Source of the DNA: a virus
Lineage: Duplodnaviria > Caudoviricetes
Strand: one strand, 5' to 3'
Virus record (IMG/VR): IMGVR_UViG_3300011334_000360
Span: 1-32,789 of that record
Length of the DNA stretch: 32,789 nt
The translations under genes were made by a program, and so were the position numbers. The notes below the pieces were generated by a model. The model saw nothing but the letters and a program-made list of their open reading frames with translations. It was not told where the DNA came from and searched no databases. This document shows, one piece after another, positions 252 to 32,789 of this stretch (positions are counted from its first letter, which is position 1; each line of letters opens with the position of its first letter).

Positions 252-281
252 TTGACATGTTTTAGAAATGCTGTGTAAAAT
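252..281 (+). promoter_or_regulatory. sigma70-like promoter
   Basis: TTGACA (252-257), 18 nt, TAAAAT (276-281); A/T-rich upstream; TGCTGTGTAAA shared with the promoter at 20296-20323. Confidence 0.6.
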
Positions 282-688: not shown

Positions 689-1063
689 ATGAAACACACG
701 CTGAATACCTACGACATTGCAAATGCACTCCTCGCTGACACTAACGCAGCTTGGTCGCACGCTGGAGCTTACGCGCTCGCCGAATACCTGGAGGATTATG
801 AGGAGTCAACTGGCGAGGAGCTAGAGCTGGACGTTGTGGCTATCCGCTGCGACTTCTCAGAATACGCCTCATTGCAAGATTGGGCGAGCGAATACTTCGG
901 CGACGAGTCACAAGCGGCTGATGCACTAGGTCTTGATATTGATATGGACGGCGTGACAGTCGCGAATGACGAGTCAGAGATCGAGGAGGCAATCCGCGAA
1001 TATATCCAAGACCACGGTACACTGATCGAATTTGATGGCGGCATTATAACCTCCAGCTTCTGA
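689..1063 (+). CDS. acidic early phage protein (possible DNA-mimic/anti-restriction type)
   Basis: ATG 689 (MKHTLNTY...); very D/E-rich (YLEDYEESTGEELELDVVAIRCDFSEY); first gene after the promoters; function inferred. Confidence 0.75.
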   Translation: MKHTLNTYDIANALLADTNAAWSHAGAYALAEYLEDYEESTGEELELDVVAIRCDFSEYASLQDWASEYFGDESQAADALGLDIDMDGVTVANDESEIEEAIREYIQDHGTLIEFDGGIITSSF

Positions 1064-1114
1064 GCCGCTGACGAGTCCCAGGCAAGGGACGAAATCCCCG
1101 CAAGGGGATACGGC
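1064..1114 (+). ncRNA. type I hammerhead ribozyme (HH1)
   Basis: GCCG-CUGACGA-GUCCC(AGGCAA)GGGAC-GAAA-UCCCC(GCAA)GGGGA-UA-CGGC; complete catalytic core, three perfect stems, AUA cleavage triplet (cut after 1110). Confidence 0.93.
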
Positions 1115-1120
1115 ACAAGC

Positions 1121-1144
1121 CACAACACAACACAACACAACACA
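1121..1144 (+). repeat. (CACAA)n tandem repeat forming an unstructured leader
   Basis: CACAACACAACACAACACAACACA between HH1 and ATG 1147. Confidence 0.85.
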
Positions 1145-1146
1145 GA

Positions 1147-1851: not shown

Positions 1852-1995
1852 ATGCAACCGACCTGCCAACTAATCCGCCGTCCTATCCGCCGTAACCAAT
1901 GGCGTAAATGGCTCACTGTCACCGCCGAAATCATCGGGGGAGTCGTCACGATTGCCCTACTTGTAACATTAACCCTCCTATGCTTAGCACTGTGA
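1852..1995 (+). CDS. small membrane protein (not in ORF track)
   Basis: MQPTCQLIRRPIRRNQWRKWLTVTAEIIGGVVTIALLVTLTLLCLAL; basic N-terminus plus one hydrophobic helix; stop overlaps next GTG (GTGA); ATG 1831 is an in-frame alternative start. Confidence 0.7.
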   Translation: MQPTCQLIRRPIRRNQWRKWLTVTAEIIGGVVTIALLVTLTLLCLAL

Positions 1996-2333
1996 CCACG
2001 TACGCAGCACTATCCCAGCGCATCCGCGCCGCCGTATCCACCGCTGATCTCGAAGCCTTAGAGAAGCGATGCGATAGGCACTATGCAGCAGGCACTATCA
2101 CGCCCCACGAGCTTTCCCGCTTGGATGAATTAACCATGGATCGCATAGCCAAGAACGGCGTCATAATTGACGAGCTTCACATCGCCCTCAGCGTATTAGA
2201 GCGGCGAGAAATTGATTTTGCCATGCGCGGCATGGTAGAGCACAGAAACTCCACGAGGCTGGCAACGCTGCCGATCAAGCGAGAAATCAACAAACTTGAG
2301 GGGAGGGAAATCTACCCCGAAGCAAGCCACTGA
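1992..2333 (+). CDS. hypothetical protein
   Basis: GTG 1992 coupled to the upstream stop; 3' part of track ORF 1908-2333; its stop codon is the UGA of the HH2 core. Confidence 0.7.
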   Translation: MTTYAALSQRIRAAVSTADLEALEKRCDRHYAAGTITPHELSRLDELTMDRIAKNGVIIDELHIALSVLERREIDFAMRGMVEHRNSTRLATLPIKREINKLEGREIYPEASH

Positions 2334-2373
2334 TGAGCCTAGGCAATAGGCGAAACCGCGCAAGCGGTCTGGC
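2326..2373 (+). ncRNA. type I hammerhead ribozyme (HH2)
   Basis: GCCA-CUGAUGA-GCCUA(GGCAA)UAGGC-GAAA-CCGC(GCAA)GCGG-UC-UGGC; canonical core, GUC triplet (cut after 2369). Confidence 0.95.
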
Positions 2374-2392
2374 ATGAGCCAAATCAAAATAT

Positions 2393-2635
2393 ATGATACT
2401 ATACCAAAAAACAGAAGATCCCCTCGTAATCGTAACCGACTCCAAAACAAAAGACGTGCAGACGAAAAAGCTAACTGGCACTTATTTTCGGATCATTCCC
2501 CCCGCAAATGATCGCGTAAATTGGGTGTTGACATGCTCAGAAATGCACGTTGACCGCTGGGCATCGGCTACAGACTCCACTATGATCATCTCCGAAAATC
2601 TACGCAATCAACTCGTAGCACTATTCCAATGTTAA
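2393..2635 (+). CDS. hypothetical protein
   Basis: 80-aa ORF just downstream of HH2, overlapping the next start. Confidence 0.7.
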   Translation: MILYQKTEDPLVIVTDSKTKDVQTKKLTGTYFRIIPPANDRVNWVLTCSEMHVDRWASATDSTMIISENLRNQLVALFQC

Positions 2636-2994: not shown

Positions 2995-3573
2995 ATGAAC
3001 CTAGAACACAGCACACCTGAATTGTTTACTGCCCTAGCAAAAATGCAAGGAGAAGTAGAAAACGCCACAAAAGGCTCACTAAATCCACATTTCAAGTCGA
3101 AATACGCGGATCTAGCCGAGGTCTTGAACACCGTTCGCCCAGTATTGGCAGCGAATGGATTATCCGTGATCCAATCGCCCTCGTTTGACGGCGCGATCTG
3201 TCACGTCACCACCACTATCGCCCACAGCGGTGGTGGTTACATTTACGGCACTATGTCCTGCGTCCCTGCTAAAATGGACGGGCAGGGCGTAGGTGCTAGT
3301 ACTACATATTTGAGGCGGTATAGCTTAGCGGCCGTGTGCGGGGTAGCTCAGGAGGATGATGACGGGCAATCTGCCGCGCATAATCGCCCAGTAGTCTATC
3401 CGCTGATCTCCAGCGGTGAAGCTGCCAGAATTCGCGAGAACATCGAAGCACTTGCTATCGACGAACTCGCATTTCTGAAGCACTACGGGGTAACATCTGT
3501 GGCACAGCTAACCACTGACAAAATCGCCAGCATTGACAAAGCGTTCGCAATCAAAGCCAAAGCCAAGCCATGA
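2995..3573 (+). CDS. erf: ERF-family ssDNA annealing protein
   Basis: ALAKMQGEV..ATK...NPHFKSKYADL, QGVGASTTYLRRYSLAAVCGVAQEDDDG. Confidence 0.92.
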   Translation: MNLEHSTPELFTALAKMQGEVENATKGSLNPHFKSKYADLAEVLNTVRPVLAANGLSVIQSPSFDGAICHVTTTIAHSGGGYIYGTMSCVPAKMDGQGVGASTTYLRRYSLAAVCGVAQEDDDGQSAAHNRPVVYPLISSGEAARIRENIEALAIDELAFLKHYGVTSVAQLTTDKIASIDKAFAIKAKAKP

Positions 3574-4376
3574 AAAACGCAACTATTGAATACAATCTAG
3601 GTAGAGCTTACTACTCACGCTCCGCATCGCCGACAAACCTGTCAGGACCTGTCAGCAAGTCGCTACTATGGGATTTCAATCAATCCCCTTACAAGTGGAG
3701 ACACAGCGCCGGCAAGGAATCGACCCGTGCCATGGATCTAGGCACGCTGATTCACGCAGCGATCTTAGAACCCAACATCCCTCTGGATGTCATCGCCGCA
3801 GTATCGCCATTCTCTGATTTCCGCACAAAAGCAGCCCAGGAGTGGAGAGACGATGCGCGAGCAATGGGAAAAATGATTGCTACAGATGACGATATTCGCG
3901 CTGCTAGCGGGTGTGAAGCGGTCTTTTCTGAGGACTATGCGCAACGCTTTGCTGGTGGCTACAAATCCGAGGTGGCAGTTTTTGCCACTATCGGGGCAAC
4001 GGACATAAAAGGCATGATTGACCTTGTGCCTGACAATCTCGACCTGCTTGTGGATCTGAAAACGACTGCCAAAATCGGCAATCTGCGCAACATCACCAAC
4101 ACTATCATTGACCGAGGCTATCACTGGCAAGCAGCGTTATACTTGGATCTGTGGAACGCAGCAAGCGGTGAGAATCGCACTCGCTTTGTTATCTGTTTTA
4201 TCGAGGTAACAGCACCGTATGAATCGGCATGGGTGGAAGTATCACCCGAGTTGATCGAGGCGGGGCGAGTCGGCTACATGAACGCGCTTGCGAAATGGCA
4301 ATCCTGCGTAGCTGTAGGCGTATGGCCTCGACAACATGAGGGCATCACCACTATCGAGAAACCCGCTTACCTATAA
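3570..4376 (+). CDS. PD-(D/E)XK RecE/exonuclease VIII-like nuclease (DUF3799 type)
   Basis: SKSLL, AMDLGTLIHAAILEP, KGMIDL...VDLKTT, GYHWQAALY; adjacent to ERF with ATGA overlap. Confidence 0.9.
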   Translation: MKNATIEYNLGRAYYSRSASPTNLSGPVSKSLLWDFNQSPYKWRHSAGKESTRAMDLGTLIHAAILEPNIPLDVIAAVSPFSDFRTKAAQEWRDDARAMGKMIATDDDIRAASGCEAVFSEDYAQRFAGGYKSEVAVFATIGATDIKGMIDLVPDNLDLLVDLKTTAKIGNLRNITNTIIDRGYHWQAALYLDLWNAASGENRTRFVICFIEVTAPYESAWVEVSPELIEAGRVGYMNALAKWQSCVAVGVWPRQHEGITTIEKPAYL

Positions 4377-5616: not shown

Positions 5617-5763
5617 GTCTGCTATTGTTGAAAGTTGTCTCCATGACATGCGCAAGCTAGGCAATAAAGGACACATCTCATTTACCATGCGTAAAATGAG
5701 ATACGAACACGCTTAGGCGTTTTCAGCAGACCCCGTCAGCACCCACTGGCGGGGTTTTTGTTT
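5617..5763 (+). ncRNA. putative structured small RNA (sRNA-1) with three-way-junction motif
   Basis: GUCUGC/GCAGAC closing stem; core UAUUGU-UGAAAGU-UGUC(UCCAU)GACA-U-GC(GCAA)GC-UAG-GCAAUA; extra hairpin AUCUCAUUUAC/GUAAAAUGAGAU; no ORF; covaries with 7218-7262. Confidence 0.75.
5730..5763 (+). terminator. intrinsic terminator
   Basis: ACCCCGTCAG-CACCCA-CTGGCGGGGT followed by TTTTGTTT. Confidence 0.85.
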
Positions 5764-7150: not shown

Positions 7151-7307
7151 AAAAAATATCTCCCAAAGTGTGCATCGTTGAGAGGCATGGGAGATCTGCT
7201 GTGATTGGAGACCCGCACCCGATCTAGCTTTCGCGATGACATGGAGTCAACTTTCAATCGGGGCAGGAATCCCACCTACTACGCGCAATGCTGCGTTTCG
7301 CAAGTTC
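7151..7307 (-). ncRNA. putative structured small RNA (sRNA-2), second copy of the three-way-junction motif
   Basis: core CCCGAU-UGAAAGU-UGAC(UCCAU)GUCA-UC-GC(GAAA)GC-UAG-AUCGGG; extended CCUGC/GCGGG stem; ends in AUCUCCCA/UGGGAGAU hairpin plus AUUUUUU. Confidence 0.75.
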
Positions 7308-28051: not shown

Positions 28052-31000
28052 TTACTTTGACCCAGAATTCAAGTTTTGTTTTCGTTGAAGGTCAAATTTT
28101 TGATTTAATCTATCAAATTCAGGATTGTAATTTGCACTTTGTTTTTCCTCAAGTTGTTTTGCGTCAAATTGTTTTGCCATGTTAATCAACTCAGCAGAAA
28201 ACTCTGGATCGCTGGATGCTTGGTGAGCTAGTGCTGTCGCCCCAGTTCTACTCAAGAACATCTGCTTTGCCATTTGGTTGTATGCGTCATTAGCCTTGCC
28301 AGGAATAGCCGTCTTAGCAAGAGCCGATTTAATCATGTTGCTATTAACGCCAGATGAAAGCATTGCAGTAAGAAATCTATTTCTGGTTGAATCAGCCATT
28401 TTTTGAAGTGAAACGATTACTGTTCCACCTTGTGGGCTTCCAATCATCCTAAAGGTAGATCCTGTCTTTGCAACATCAGCAATAGCGTTTGCTTCGGCTG
28501 TCGCAGCCAAGTCATAAAGGAAATCAGCTTCTTCCTTGCCAAGCACGATTTGTAGCTTTTTGGCAAATGTAGTCACATTACCGCTAGATGGTCGATAATC
28601 GTTCATGAATCTTTTTGTGTCAAAAATCGCCTCAAAAGGAGTGTTGGCATTTGGATTTCCACCTGAATAAGCATCAAGAAGTTCTCGCCTGAAATCCCCT
28701 TTATAAAGATTTCTCGACTCCAGTGACGATTTGCTTAATTGAAGCATTGCGTTTTTAGTATCTTCAATAATGCTTGACGGAGACAATATTGATTTTGAAA
28801 GAGCATCTGCATAAATGTTTTTGAAGTCTCCTTGTTTTGCAAGATCAAATATCTTTTGATTCACTAATACTGCATCGTCTTTTTCTGCCTGAATTCTTTT
28901 AGCGATTGTTTTTGCTAGAGATTTTCTTTCAACTTCAGAAAGAGGTTTGCCCATTTTTTGCAAATCATCCATTGTCAGCTTGCTTGAACCAAGATCGCCA
29001 ATGTTTTTTAGGTTATTATTCAAATCAGAAATTGCTCTTAATTGAGCATCTGCTTGTCCTCCAAAAAGAGTTCTTACTATATTCTCATCTGCCTTGATAC
29101 TTCTTGCTCCTTTTCCACGCAAACTTGGCTTAATGCCGATTTTATTCATGTATTCCAACTGGAGTAATCCAAGAATTTTATTAGTTTGCCCAGCTTTAGT
29201 TGGTTCGGCAACTTCAAGTTCACGCAAAGATTGAACAACCTTTTTAATTGTTTCTGGTTCACGCATTACTGCGGCTACAATAGCTCTTGGATTTGTGCTT
29301 TGTTCGCCCCCAGCCTCCTTCAATATACCACCAAGAAGATTGTTATTGTATTTTTGACGAGTTTCAACCTCATCTGCATATTTACTAAAAAGATCTCCAA
29401 CATTTACATCTTGTCCATTAGGAAGTTTTGTATCAATGGAGTTGAAAACATTTCTACGATAACGGGACAAACCTGATGCAATCTTATTAGCGAATACGTC
29501 TCGACTTTTCCCACTAGATGCATTATCAGATTTTGCTTCTTGGAAATTTTTTATAAACTCATCAAAGTCTTCTGATCTTAATGGTCTAGATAATAATGTA
29601 AGATCATCAATCTCTTTACGCAAATCCTGAGGAATATTTAAATTCTGTTGATTTAATATTGCTGCTTTTGCCTCTGCTGCCTTAAGAAGCTCTGGAGCAT
29701 CTCTCCGTATTCTCAATCGACTAATTACGCCTTCAGCGGCAGATCTATTAGCTGCTCCAGATGGATCTGCTTGTCTGCTTATTGCAAAAACTTGATCCAG
29801 CATTTCTTCTGGAGTTACGCTGAATCCAGCATTATCAGCTAAATCAAAAATTTGTTTGCGTGCTGTTTTGACGTTTTCTATTGCTTGTGTTCTAGCATCT
29901 TTAATAGAACTAAATAATATTTTGCCAAGTTCATCTGTATCACTTAACGCGCCTCTTGTCTGACGATCTAACGCTCCCTCAATAAGTCTAGCATTTCGTC
30001 CAGTTGCCGATGCAATTTGTTGAGCTAAAGCTTTTTGTTGCTCCTCTTTCTGCAATGCAATATCTGCATAATTATTTGGATTTGCTGGAATGTTTGATCT
30101 CCAGTCATCAGATAGTCGTAACAATGTTTCTTGAGTTTTGCGAGCAGACGATGCAATATTGGATGTGGGATATATTCCAGCAAGTTCAGATTGAGCCTCT
30201 AATCCTACTGGACCAGCCAACTTGGCTGCAAAGGGAACATTTACCTCTCCTGCTGCTCGACGTTGCTTAGCTGCTAACCTCTGCTCTCTAACCATCAAGT
30301 TTTCTGCTGACCTCTCAAGGTTTTGGGCAAATCTATTAACAAACTCGTCGCCTATTCTTGCCGCTGCAAATCGTGGAACAGCAACATCAGTAATACCACC
30401 CATGCCAGCACTGATTACAGCTTGAGTTCCCCGTCTTGCAATTGTTCCGCCAATATCAGGCTTAAGACCATAAGCGTATCTTAATCCTTCATCCATAAGC
30501 GCACCTGTTGCTGCACCAGCGGCAGAAGATAGCCCTACTGCTGCCACTGGGCTTTTTGTTACACCAAGTGTTCCTAGGAATGTCCCAATCTCTACTGCTG
30601 TTGATGGGATTTCAGCGGCTACTCCTGCAAGTTCTGCTGCTCCTTTGTTTAGAGTTGTCTTTACACTGCCATCAGGTTGGGTAATGAAGAACTCAGTATT
30701 ACCAGCAACATTTAATGGTCTTACGTTTCCTTCTCCAAAGTAATTTGTCAGAAGTTGAGCTTTACTTGTTGGATCGTAAAGCGTTTCTAATTGTGCCATT
30801 AGCGAAGTAGGTAGCTTTTCAGCTTCTTTTCCTTTACTAGGAGGTAAGCTTAAATACTGCCCAGCAATATCGCGTTTTTTTTCTATTTGCTGCTCAACAG
30901 ATGGTTGTTGTGTGTCATATACTGGTGGATTTGCACCAACACCAGGCATTCCATACATTGCCATGTAGTTAGCTGTCGGGCTAACTATTGGAGCGCGAAG

Positions 31001-31270
31001 TTCTTTGCCAAGTGCTTGAATCCTTTCTAGATTAGGTTTTTCTTCCTTCTCTTTAAGCGAGTCATATTGAGATTGTCTTCGATTTAACAAATCAGTTAAT
31101 TTAACTGCCTTGTCAGCAATTTGATTAGCTAATTCAGTATTGCCAGTTTTTTTCGCTTCAGCAAGTTGAGAAATGGCTTCTTTGCGAGACGCAAATATGC
31201 TTTTGATATCATCATAAGCAATAGATATCTCTTTAGATAAGTCAATATTTGATGATTGTTTTTCACTCAT
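28052..31270 (-). CDS. large helical virion/DNA-ejection (internal) protein
   Basis: 1072 aa, Ala/Lys/Gln-rich, with a Gly/Ala hydrophobic stretch (AAVGLSSAAGAATGAL); function inferred. Confidence 0.6.
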   Translation of the reverse strand: MSEKQSSNIDLSKEISIAYDDIKSIFASRKEAISQLAEAKKTGNTELANQIADKAVKLTDLLNRRQSQYDSLKEKEEKPNLERIQALGKELRAPIVSPTANYMAMYGMPGVGANPPVYDTQQPSVEQQIEKKRDIAGQYLSLPPSKGKEAEKLPTSLMAQLETLYDPTSKAQLLTNYFGEGNVRPLNVAGNTEFFITQPDGSVKTTLNKGAAELAGVAAEIPSTAVEIGTFLGTLGVTKSPVAAVGLSSAAGAATGALMDEGLRYAYGLKPDIGGTIARRGTQAVISAGMGGITDVAVPRFAAARIGDEFVNRFAQNLERSAENLMVREQRLAAKQRRAAGEVNVPFAAKLAGPVGLEAQSELAGIYPTSNIASSARKTQETLLRLSDDWRSNIPANPNNYADIALQKEEQQKALAQQIASATGRNARLIEGALDRQTRGALSDTDELGKILFSSIKDARTQAIENVKTARKQIFDLADNAGFSVTPEEMLDQVFAISRQADPSGAANRSAAEGVISRLRIRRDAPELLKAAEAKAAILNQQNLNIPQDLRKEIDDLTLLSRPLRSEDFDEFIKNFQEAKSDNASSGKSRDVFANKIASGLSRYRRNVFNSIDTKLPNGQDVNVGDLFSKYADEVETRQKYNNNLLGGILKEAGGEQSTNPRAIVAAVMREPETIKKVVQSLRELEVAEPTKAGQTNKILGLLQLEYMNKIGIKPSLRGKGARSIKADENIVRTLFGGQADAQLRAISDLNNNLKNIGDLGSSKLTMDDLQKMGKPLSEVERKSLAKTIAKRIQAEKDDAVLVNQKIFDLAKQGDFKNIYADALSKSILSPSSIIEDTKNAMLQLSKSSLESRNLYKGDFRRELLDAYSGGNPNANTPFEAIFDTKRFMNDYRPSSGNVTTFAKKLQIVLGKEEADFLYDLAATAEANAIADVAKTGSTFRMIGSPQGGTVIVSLQKMADSTRNRFLTAMLSSGVNSNMIKSALAKTAIPGKANDAYNQMAKQMFLSRTGATALAHQASSDPEFSAELINMAKQFDAKQLEEKQSANYNPEFDRLNQKFDLQRKQNLNSGSK

Positions 31271-31274
31271 TTAA

Positions 31275-32789
31275 TTATTTTTTAGTTCTGAATTCATCAA
31301 TTAGCTGTTGCTCTGCTGGTGTTAATCCCATAGCTTCGCTTGGAGTAGCTGTTGGCGTAGTTCTTGATTTAATTTCACCTTGTTCATCCAAATACTCAGC
31401 AGGTGCATTAGCCATAGCTTGGCTAAATTGCGATTGAGTAATTTCACCTTTATCTAGCTTAGATTTAAGCACTCGTTCTGATCCATAAATAAGATCATGT
31501 TGGAGATTCTTTAATCTAACCAATTCACGCTTAAACGCTGCTGGACTTTGAGCATTTCTAAGGGCTGTTACAGAAGATCGTAAAACAGCCATGTCTTTAT
31601 CGGATACATTGCCAAGTGCTGCACCAGTAGGGTTATTCGCCCTCATTTCCTGAATACCAGAAAGCGTAAGCATTGAATTAACTCGATCGATAATGTCTTT
31701 GGTTTCAGCTTGTTGAGTTGCAGGAATCTGTTCAGCAACCATACGACCAGCCGCGCCAAGAACTCCAGGAGCCATTGACTGTGAAGCTTTTTCAAGCAAA
31801 TTAAGGTCTTGCATAAGCCCCATAGCTTTATCAATTTTGGCATCTTCTGCTTTTTGTGCTTGAGCTGCTTTTCCGCCAAGCGAAATATCACGTTTTGTTA
31901 CAGTTCCATCAGAATTAAAAATTATTTCTTCTCCTTTTTGTGGAGCTAGAGATTGGATATCAGTAACAAAGATTTGACCATTTTCTGCTGGAGTGCCACT
32001 TATTTTGTATCCTTGTTGAATTAGCTTACTAACTTCTTCTGGAGACATAACTTGTCCTTGTTTTTCATCAGCTTCTACTGGAATTGCATACGAAGGAACT
32101 GATGTATTTGGTTGCGATCCTTCAAATGGAAGCAATGTAGGAACTTGACTTTCTACTCCAGTATTAAGTGGTGGCAGCAAACTTGTATCGTTAGTATAAA
32201 GATTGTCAGTAGGAAGCTCTAATGCGTTAGCGATTGCATTAGATTTACCTTGAAGTCCACCTGTCGCCTGAGGAATAGGTAAGCTTGCGGCAGAAGCAAT
32301 TCCTGATGCTGTCGCAGAAGTTCCAAAAACTGTTCCATCGGGTCTTGTTCTTGTTCCTGTTGCTGGGTCGAAAACAACTGGCACCTTGTATTGTTTGCCA
32401 TTTATTGTTTCAATAATCTCACCTTGTTGGAGATTTACATTTCTTTCTCCTGTAGTGTTCCTTGCTTCCATTGCAGCTTTCTCAATCAGCATAGCCTGAT
32501 TCTTATCAAATCGACCAAAAACGTTAGGAATCATCGCCTTGCCCTCATCCAGCAATGCAGCTTTCTCAACAGGACTAAGGTTAGGGTTATTATATGATTC
32601 TAGGAATGGATTTAGCGTTTCTTCCACTCCTTTAATCTGATACGATTTACCTAGGGTGATCGCAGCTTCAATAGACTTGGCAGACGCTTTGTTGTAAGCG
32701 TCAACTTTCTTCTGCTCTTTTTTGACATCACCGTAGTTCTGAATAGCACCTCCGATGCTCTGCCCAAGGCTAGCTAAACCCTGTGCTTG
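31275..32789 (-). CDS. putative ejection/internal virion protein, 5' end outside the window
   Basis: frame stays open from 32627 to the window edge (QAQGLASLGQSIGGAIQNYG...); TGAALGNVSDKDM motif. Confidence 0.65.
   Translation of the reverse strand, partial: QAQGLASLGQSIGGAIQNYGDVKKEQKKVDAYNKASAKSIEAAITLGKSYQIKGVEETLNPFLESYNNPNLSPVEKAALLDEGKAMIPNVFGRFDKNQAMLIEKAAMEARNTTGERNVNLQQGEIIETINGKQYKVPVVFDPATGTRTRPDGTVFGTSATASGIASAASLPIPQATGGLQGKSNAIANALELPTDNLYTNDTSLLPPLNTGVESQVPTLLPFEGSQPNTSVPSYAIPVEADEKQGQVMSPEEVSKLIQQGYKISGTPAENGQIFVTDIQSLAPQKGEEIIFNSDGTVTKRDISLGGKAAQAQKAEDAKIDKAMGLMQDLNLLEKASQSMAPGVLGAAGRMVAEQIPATQQAETKDIIDRVNSMLTLSGIQEMRANNPTGAALGNVSDKDMAVLRSSVTALRNAQSPAAFKRELVRLKNLQHDLIYGSERVLKSKLDKGEITQSQFSQAMANAPAEYLDEQGEIKSRTTPTATPSEAMGLTPAEQQLIDEFRTKK

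Follow-up and report, generated by a model that had tools for sequence, protein, structure and literature searches.

Why should a phage gene end inside the catalytic core of a self-cleaving ribozyme, and does the ribosome that stops there influence whether the RNA is cut? The question arises in DNA from an uncultured tailed phage (Duplodnaviria; Caudoviricetes; IMG/VR record IMGVR_UViG_3300011334_000360), where positions 1 to 32,789 were analysed and are referred to below as the window. An earlier note on this DNA had described a hammerhead ribozyme, HH2, whose core contains the stop codon of the gene upstream, and had suggested that cleavage may be coupled to translation of that gene. The stop in the core proved to be true and recurrent, and it is most simply explained by creep of the gene into the ribozyme under tight packing. 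The overlap is thus likely to be a by-product of the way in which these genes are packed, rather than a dedicated translation switch.

Anatomy of the ribozyme and of the gene that ends in it

The core consensus of hammerheads is C3-U4-G5-A6-N7-G8-A9 together with G12-A13-A14, in agreement with the Rfam consensus line. HH2 contains both segments (Table 1), as well as three stems, of which II and III are closed by loops and I is open, paired G10.1-C11.1 and A15.1-U16.1 positions, and an NUH triplet, GUC, that is found in 66 of the at least 93 family copies described below. The canonical, GUC-cleaving hammerhead claimed previously could therefore be read directly from core, triplet and stems, the cut site being predicted, and the minimum free energy fold of HH2 is also the hammerhead fold. 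The window contains two full motifs, whereas 200 first-order Markov windows averaged 0.005, so that chance is not the explanation. The Rfam hammerhead models (RF00163, RF00008 and RF02275) did not match HH2 at E values up to 1, and they gave HH1, a paralogous copy, only 25 bits against a gathering threshold of 48.5 bits, so that there was no gathering-level hammerhead in the window. In six related loci Rfam hammerheads scored 21-33 bits, all under gathering (the best being 33.1 against 34 bits for RF00163). Because HH2 has the defining anatomy of a hammerhead, we read this shortfall as a limit of the models; with a clade model (which includes the HH2 sequence) it scored 67.7 bits. To judge by its sequence, HH2 is a real hammerhead of a known kind that is probably active; background on type I hammerheads and their triplets is available elsewhere (PMC13725137, PMC1636495).

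Table 1. Features of the early region of the window
Feature	Position	Strand	Basis and remarks
Promoter-like site	252..281	+	11/12 consensus match only; ahead of early genes
Stop (TGA) of gene upstream of HH1	1061-1063	+	Abuts stem I; offset -7
HH1, paralogous type I hammerhead	1064..1114	+	Structural scan, clade model; AUA triplet, predicted cut after 1110
Upstream gene of HH2	1992..2333	+	113 aa; GTG start overlaps TGA of ORF 1831-1995
HH2, type I hammerhead	2326..2373	+	Sequence and structural scan, fold; complete core, three stems
HH2 stem I	2326-2329/2370-2373	+	4 pairs, open end; read from sequence
HH2 core CUGAUGA	2330-2336	+	Read from sequence
Stop TGA = U4-G5-A6 of HH2 core	2331..2333	+	Sequence, frame analysis
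Second in-frame TGA	2334-2336	+	Directly after the 2331-2333 stop
HH2 stem II	2337-2341/2347-2351	+	5 pairs
HH2 loop II GGCAA	2342-2346	+	Read from sequence
Loop II GGC, likely 5' strand of pseudoknot	2342..2344	+	35/35 protein-anchored copies; flanking-pair covariation
HH2 GAA	2352-2354	+	G12-A13-A14
HH2 stem III, loop GCAA	2355-2359/2364-2368	+	5 pairs
HH2 triplet GUC	2367-2369	+	C17 = 2369; predicted cut between C2369 and U2370
Tail GCCA	2378..2381	+	35/35; likely loop II partner via 2378-2380, or 4-bp hairpin with 2370-2373
Downstream gene	2393..2635	+	80 aa; conserved in 22 related loci; ATG 23 nt after predicted cut
erf	2995-3573		In predicted early transcript
Exonuclease VIII-like gene	3570-4376		In predicted early transcript
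Terminator-like hairpin	5728..5757	+	Consensus match only; closes predicted early transcript

HH1 and HH2 both lie inside a predicted early transcript of 5.5 kb, between the promoter-like and terminator-like sites. As the earlier note had stated, all three stems differ between the two yet remain paired, which a direct comparison bore out. Its statement that loops II and III are both kept calls for small corrections. The GGC of loop II was present in 35/35 protein-anchored copies, but loop II of HH1 is AGGCAA (six bases, not five), and a GCAA loop III, found in 8/35, is no constant of the family. A structural scan of the window revealed no third copy, and nothing else in it scored above 11.6 bits with the clade model.

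The reading frame that ends in the core of HH2 is real by its codon-position pattern. Among five homologues, 19 of the 34 variable columns in the last 168 nt of the gene are third positions, synonymous changes exceed non-synonymous ones in 10/10 pairs, and each of the other two frames contains 3-7 stops over the same stretch, so that the claimed identity of the stop codon with the UGA of the core stands. The gene itself is an in-frame fusion: in relatives, residues 1-53 and residues 53-113 belong to two distinct genes that are separated by a third. The junction is at about 2146, where 376 nt are missing compared with relatives, and the deletion also removes a 105-aa gene; the parts that were joined are the 5' part of a 57-aa gene (a weak match to phrog_32338) and a 60-aa gene. 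In one relative, two further early genes seem to have been joined in a comparable way (L278:85-510). In two of the five database homologues of the protein the C-terminal residues are different (short contigs, compared at the protein level), and a search with a differently ending homologue (P0005) found no new locus of the 3' end of the gene. The leader of the downstream gene was taken as the 23 nt to the ATG at 2393, a script value of 4 referring to an overlapping, off-frame ATG.

A compact hammerhead family in related phages

Related loci were drawn from three protein-anchored searches and four pattern scans, those from pattern scans being the matches listed. A family scan that required core, triplet and three stems was applied to the 538 sequences, and it revealed at least 93 distinct full hammerheads in this related phage DNA. 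Three of the pattern scans fixed GCCA in stem I, which biases the collection as regards stem I; this bias does not affect the 35 protein-anchored copies. There were one to three copies, on the gene strand, in 22/22 related loci. By contrast with the viral loci, the 120 pattern loci listed from cellular genome contigs (24/64 parts scanned), which were among the 538 sequences, contained no full hammerhead, and no prophage or host was found there. Cultured phages gave no DNA match other than three 24-nt chance hits, and the nearest cultured relative by capsid, C75C1 (54% identity, host not given), had no copy scoring above 12.7 bits. A pattern that fixed both loops as in HH2 matched nothing in viral contigs (from which the window's own record may be excluded), and identity of loops II and III was therefore rejected as a family signature.

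For alignment we used 62 copies with GGC in loop II, GCC in the tail and short stems. Although 98.3% of the 921 stem cells were paired, compared with 18-42% in slid controls, the scan that found the copies had itself demanded pairing, and the evidence is therefore the covariation rather than that percentage. Changes on both sides were seen at 4/4 counted pairs of stem II and 3/4 of stem III, with a total of 122 compensatory cells in the two stems. In the 35 copies found without a pattern, the GCCR/YGGC of stem I, the GGC of loop II and the GCCA of the tail were constant (35/35), while stem II took 19 forms and stem III 15. Four degenerate copies that had escaped the strict scan were recovered with the clade model (L277:4933-4993, L279:4378-4437, L297:2438-2495 and, on the minus strand, L297:2031-2086). 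The first pair of stem II (G10.1-C11.1) is broken in three of these, while the fourth lacks the core and, along with the beginning of a gene of the 2393 type, lies in inverted orientation ahead of the early region.

The conservation of loop II had been noted earlier, but not the partner for which it is likely to be kept, i.e., a 3' tail at 2378-2380, which extends the element to about 2381 once the conserved GCCA is counted. The three central pairs of this putative pseudoknot are conserved and never changed on both sides in the 62-copy alignment. The pair flanking them was Watson-Crick in 31/52 combinations, compared with 22.5 by permutation (p = 0.00015, with relatedness ignored), and in 7/8 combinations where the loop base was not A; in HH2 itself the pairing is limited to the three central pairs. 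A permutation test on the longest run of pairs was not significant either for the GGC/GCC subset (139/2000) or for the non-GGC subset (293/2000). The contact is likely to be the type of pseudoknot described by Perreault et al. (2011, PMC3088659).

Because the tail has the same sequence as the 5' strand of stem I, it can also pair with 2370-2373. In models that do not allow pseudoknots, this tail hairpin is preferred to stem I in HH2 (0.85 versus 0.15) and in 57/68 copies, although HH1 is predicted to have no such preference (0.14). Since these models favor the hairpin, self-cleavage by HH2 is not guaranteed. Folding also suggests that after the predicted cleavage the hairpin would cap the downstream RNA. 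That a product hairpin is the only role of the tail was rejected, because the GCCA tail persists in copies where stem I differs.

Clusters of hammerheads around individual genes or runs of a few genes in prophages have been reported to cleave both in vitro and in E. coli, and it was proposed that they cut long transcripts into gene-length messages; a stem I-II pseudoknot was present in about 40% of representatives, and one type II example depended on it for fast cleavage (Perreault et al., 2011, PMC3088659). As in those clusters, several hammerheads lie here between small, variable phage genes. In the window there are two, flanking single genes that are not constant among relatives, and the window also carries phage hallmark genes (these encode terminase, capsid, endolysin, Erf, and exonuclease VIII-like and DnaC-like proteins). 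Unlike the published clusters (PMC3088659), however, the compact clade of HH2 scores under the Rfam gathering thresholds. The purpose of hammerheads in phages has been described as still open (PMC6765202).

Stop positions and the origin of the overlap

We expressed the position of each upstream stop codon as an offset from the core C, and counted one gene family at one offset as one event. Under a strict rule (the longest ORF also having the best codon score, a score that was not negative, and at least 40 codons), the at least 93 copies yielded 49 events. The codon model was trained on this window and most upstream genes have no PHROG match, so that calls of singleton genes are uncertain. The earlier note had suggested looking for the overlap in related phages, and there it recurs, the core UGA being the stop codon (+1) in 14/49 strict events. 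Other stops were at -7 (10 events), -6, -8 and -12 (three each), -9, -10 and -20 (two each) and +17 (one), with nine others found singly upstream and none past the cut. Looser rules placed +1 in 22/68 and 18/67 events from the same copies, with two or three calls past the cut that scored poorly or were outcompeted, and in the protein-anchored loci +1 accounted for 10/20. Altogether 39/49 strict stops fell within -12..+17, and 10/49 were at -15 or further upstream. The share of the core frame was 23/49 under the strict rule (p = 0.033), 34/68 by longest ORF (p = 0.003) and 30/67 by codon score (p = 0.034).

The stop is at +1 in 5/5 DNA-level members of the gene family that precedes HH2. Across orthologues, however, its position relative to the ribozyme is not conserved, since it flips inside three families (+1 in five and -7 in two members; +1 in three, with -7 and -10; and +1 with -44). 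The genes found before the ribozyme where a gene of the 2393 type follows include at least seven unrelated ones, with stops at +1, -7 and -8. In one family with a +1 stop, PHROG profiles 2656 and 5664 fall short of that codon by five residues. In three loci a deletion a few bases behind the core has removed the rest of the ribozyme, yet the UGA still serves as the stop codon (L276:4279, L281:2203, L282:3463). Two genes in other frames, with stops at +17 (L252) and +11 (L192), read through the core and end in stem or loop II; the former belongs to PHROG 32338, as does the N-terminal half of the fusion gene in the window.

Ribozymes that overlap a gene could not be distinguished from those that do not, either by N7 (Fisher p = 0.32) or by cleavage triplet, and a second UGA in tandem was not significantly favored (11/14 versus 21/35, p = 0.32). 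We also considered whether genes that stop in the core usually retain a relic, out-of-frame stop at -6/-7, but there was little support for this (2/14). Leaders from cut to ATG were 19-39 nt long in 15/17 cases and so match ordinary stop-to-ATG gaps, which were 17-37 nt in 23/44 (with overlaps in 12), the commonest class of leader being 20-24 nt (37/87).

A stop before the cut was offered in the core frame by 84/84 ribozyme bodies, but in the other two frames by only 14/84 and 23/84. If their upstream stop were lost, 9/9 core-frame genes would land on +1, whereas 16/25 genes in other frames would pass the cut. Consistent with this, stops lay inside the ribozyme in 14/23 core-frame events but in 1/26 of the others. 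C-termini differ within families, as would be expected of a variable and apparently dispensable extension that ends at the next in-frame stop.

In these phages stop codon, ribozyme and next leader are packed with almost no spacer. A core-frame gene that lost its stop codon would gain a few residues and be rescued at the core UGA, whereas a gene in another frame would mostly run past the cut, giving an RNA without a stop codon, and would be purged. HH2 would cut the early, polycistronic RNA, leaving an upstream message that ends in stems II and III and a downstream message that starts with a 5'-OH, a short hairpin and the 23-nt leader; we infer this cleavage, and the stability of its products, from the structure. 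A ribosome that terminates in the core would unfold stem I and the core briefly and so delay cleavage, a side effect that would be shared with stops at about -6 to -12 rather than a gate. We infer the direction of creep from the positions of the stops and the asymmetry between frames. Taken together, we think it probable that the stop codon in the core of HH2, a type I hammerhead with a likely pseudoknot and a predicted cut site, arose by creep of the gene after loss of its own stop. Some excess of the core frame is expected anyway, because creep predicts it and ORF calling favors that frame, but the excess may leave room for weak selection.

The term "core creep" has been proposed for ORFs in introns, i.e., for homing-endonuclease ORFs, such as I-TevI in the td intron of T4, that extend into group I cores (PMC3073962). 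In both situations the ORF runs to the next in-frame stop within a ribozyme and acquires a variable, seemingly dispensable extension; the difference is that in the present phages a self-cleaver of 48 nt lies downstream of the gene, and its cut site filters the frames that may creep. The main text of PMC3088659 does not contain the words "stop codon" or "translation", and the stop overlap is undiscussed there. A literature search, of mostly openly accessible papers and of the main text of PMC3088659, listed no description of a phage gene that ends in a hammerhead core. The tandem UGA of the hammerhead core has been remarked upon in an argument about the origin of the code (preprint 10.64898/2026.03.05.709948), and ORFs of Zeta viruses overlap hammerheads, mostly without stops (10.1101/2020.08.07.241729).

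Ribosomes, gene shuffling and the early region

By established ribosome geometry, termination at 2331-2333 would be incompatible with a folded core, and a ribosome that terminates anywhere from -12 to +17 would mask some or all of stem I. The proposal that cleavage is coupled to upstream translation survives in part: the overlap behind it is real and recurrent, but flips within families, and retention of the UGA after loss of the ribozyme, argue against the core as a selected device. Any coupling would act via stem I and the competing tail rather than via the core overlap itself. Such coupling would moreover be family-wide, including HH1, because the 5' strand of stem I would likewise be covered by a ribosome stopping at -6 to -12.

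One such scheme is that ribosome-gated cleavage has been selected throughout the family. The GCCA of stem I and that of the tail would compete for a single UGGC, and cleavage would follow upstream translation: a ribosome terminating at about -12 to +17 would cover the 5' GCCA and promote the inactive tail hairpin, or on leaving would reset a misfold. This would explain why just these strands are fixed while stems II and III vary, why the tail hairpin is predicted over stem I in most copies, and why 39/49 stops lie where they would keep the ribosome on stem I; there is also a precedent in the T4 td intron, where translation of the upstream exon aids folding (PMC3017892, PMC3073962). However, copies with another stem I retain the GCCA tail (L023, L049, L103, L104, L127), which makes the tail independent of stem I, HH1 is predicted to lack the hairpin preference, the remaining 10/49 stops are too far upstream, and ordinary gene junctions are equally tight. 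A 4-bp hairpin should, in addition, exchange quickly. We regard selected gating as unlikely. Its more specific form is a register-swapping hammerhead, in which two GCC and two GGC strands would form either the active fold or the tail hairpin, as chosen by the finishing ribosome; this we rate as quite unlikely. If it were true, the translation of each gene would set the rate at which the early transcript is processed, and the family would represent a natural translation-sensing switch spread over dozens of unrelated genes.

Like the T4 td intron, HH2 is a phage ribozyme beside translated sequence, with a stop codon that keeps ribosomes off most of the structure. Translation-assisted folding of td was, however, established by experiment (PMC3017892, PMC3073962), whereas the present case is built from sequence and the position of the stop is not conserved.

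The clade supplies matched pairs that arose naturally. For a given combination of gene and ribozyme, stops at +1 and at -7 both occur (+1 at L283:4935, against -7 at L278:2352 or L287:3103), and loci that keep the ribozyme can be set beside others that have lost it, so that any influence of translation on cleavage is open to a direct test. Were coupling to emerge, the family would provide a naturally occurring self-cleaving RNA that senses ribosomes; otherwise it would be a clean example of core creep in which the cleavage site acts as the filter, in a compact hammerhead clade missed by Rfam.

It seems very improbable that HH2 is slow or inactive in its context, and that the copies persist as joints for gene shuffling driven by Erf and the exonuclease, and as a source of stops. 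Gene content between ribozymes does differ among relatives, and the ribozyme body tends, on sequence comparison, to move together with the gene upstream: the same stem III and triplet were seen in 29/42 pairs with the same upstream family, 29/111 with the same downstream gene and 128/595 overall, although these pairs are non-independent. The three copies with a broken first pair in stem II, the core-less copy and the three deletions would also fit inactive ribozymes. Against this, the compensatory changes in stems II and III (122 cells) lower DNA identity yet keep the fold, and the core of HH2 is intact. Recombination at the ribozyme repeats is suggested, but stays a lead because junctions without ribozymes have been shuffled too. 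The arrangement resembles the PeSL cassettes of T4-type phages, in which short repeated elements lie among variable early genes whose content is shuffled around them (PMC2839356), but PeSLs consist of a promoter and a terminator, whereas the repeat here is a ribozyme and its recombination is only suggested.

Finally, we give hardly any credence to the idea that the core overlap itself was selected to couple cleavage to termination of this particular gene since, despite its recurrence (14/49 strict events and every DNA-level member of the family preceding HH2) and the modest enrichment of the core frame (p = 0.03), it is opposed by the flips within families, by loss of the ribozyme with the stop kept, by an upstream gene that is itself a fusion and is replaced elsewhere by at least seven unrelated ones with stops at +1, -7 or -8, and by the lack of a detectable difference in N7 or triplet between overlapping and non-overlapping copies. 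Creep under tight packing accounts for the overlap most simply.

Repeats of other kinds are also present in the early region. CA-rich leaders with no obvious Shine-Dalgarno sequence, themselves short repeats, precede many early genes in the window (1115-1146, 1410-1430 and 1810-1850) and in related loci. Pyrimidine-rich short tandem repeats lie 3' of the promoter-like site (375-480 and 1505-1590), and in the ORF at 1430-1807 repeats of 15 nt encode pentapeptide repeats. Beyond the early transcript, an abiF RNA scored 41.5 bits with Rfam, above the gathering threshold of 37 bits, on the minus strand at 7158-7194, and the same RNA was found in 3/6 related loci scanned (L287:6977-7013, L283:9472-9508 and L276:9094-9129). 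There was no AbiF-like gene next to it among the few ORFs scanned; a lone phage copy could, we presume, act as a decoy antitoxin RNA. One relative has a tRNA gene (L287:7396-7469), and none is present in the window. Two large ORFs occupy the virion region of the window, at 28052-31270 and, on the minus strand, 31275-32627, the second of which weakly matches a PHROG of proteins released on infection.
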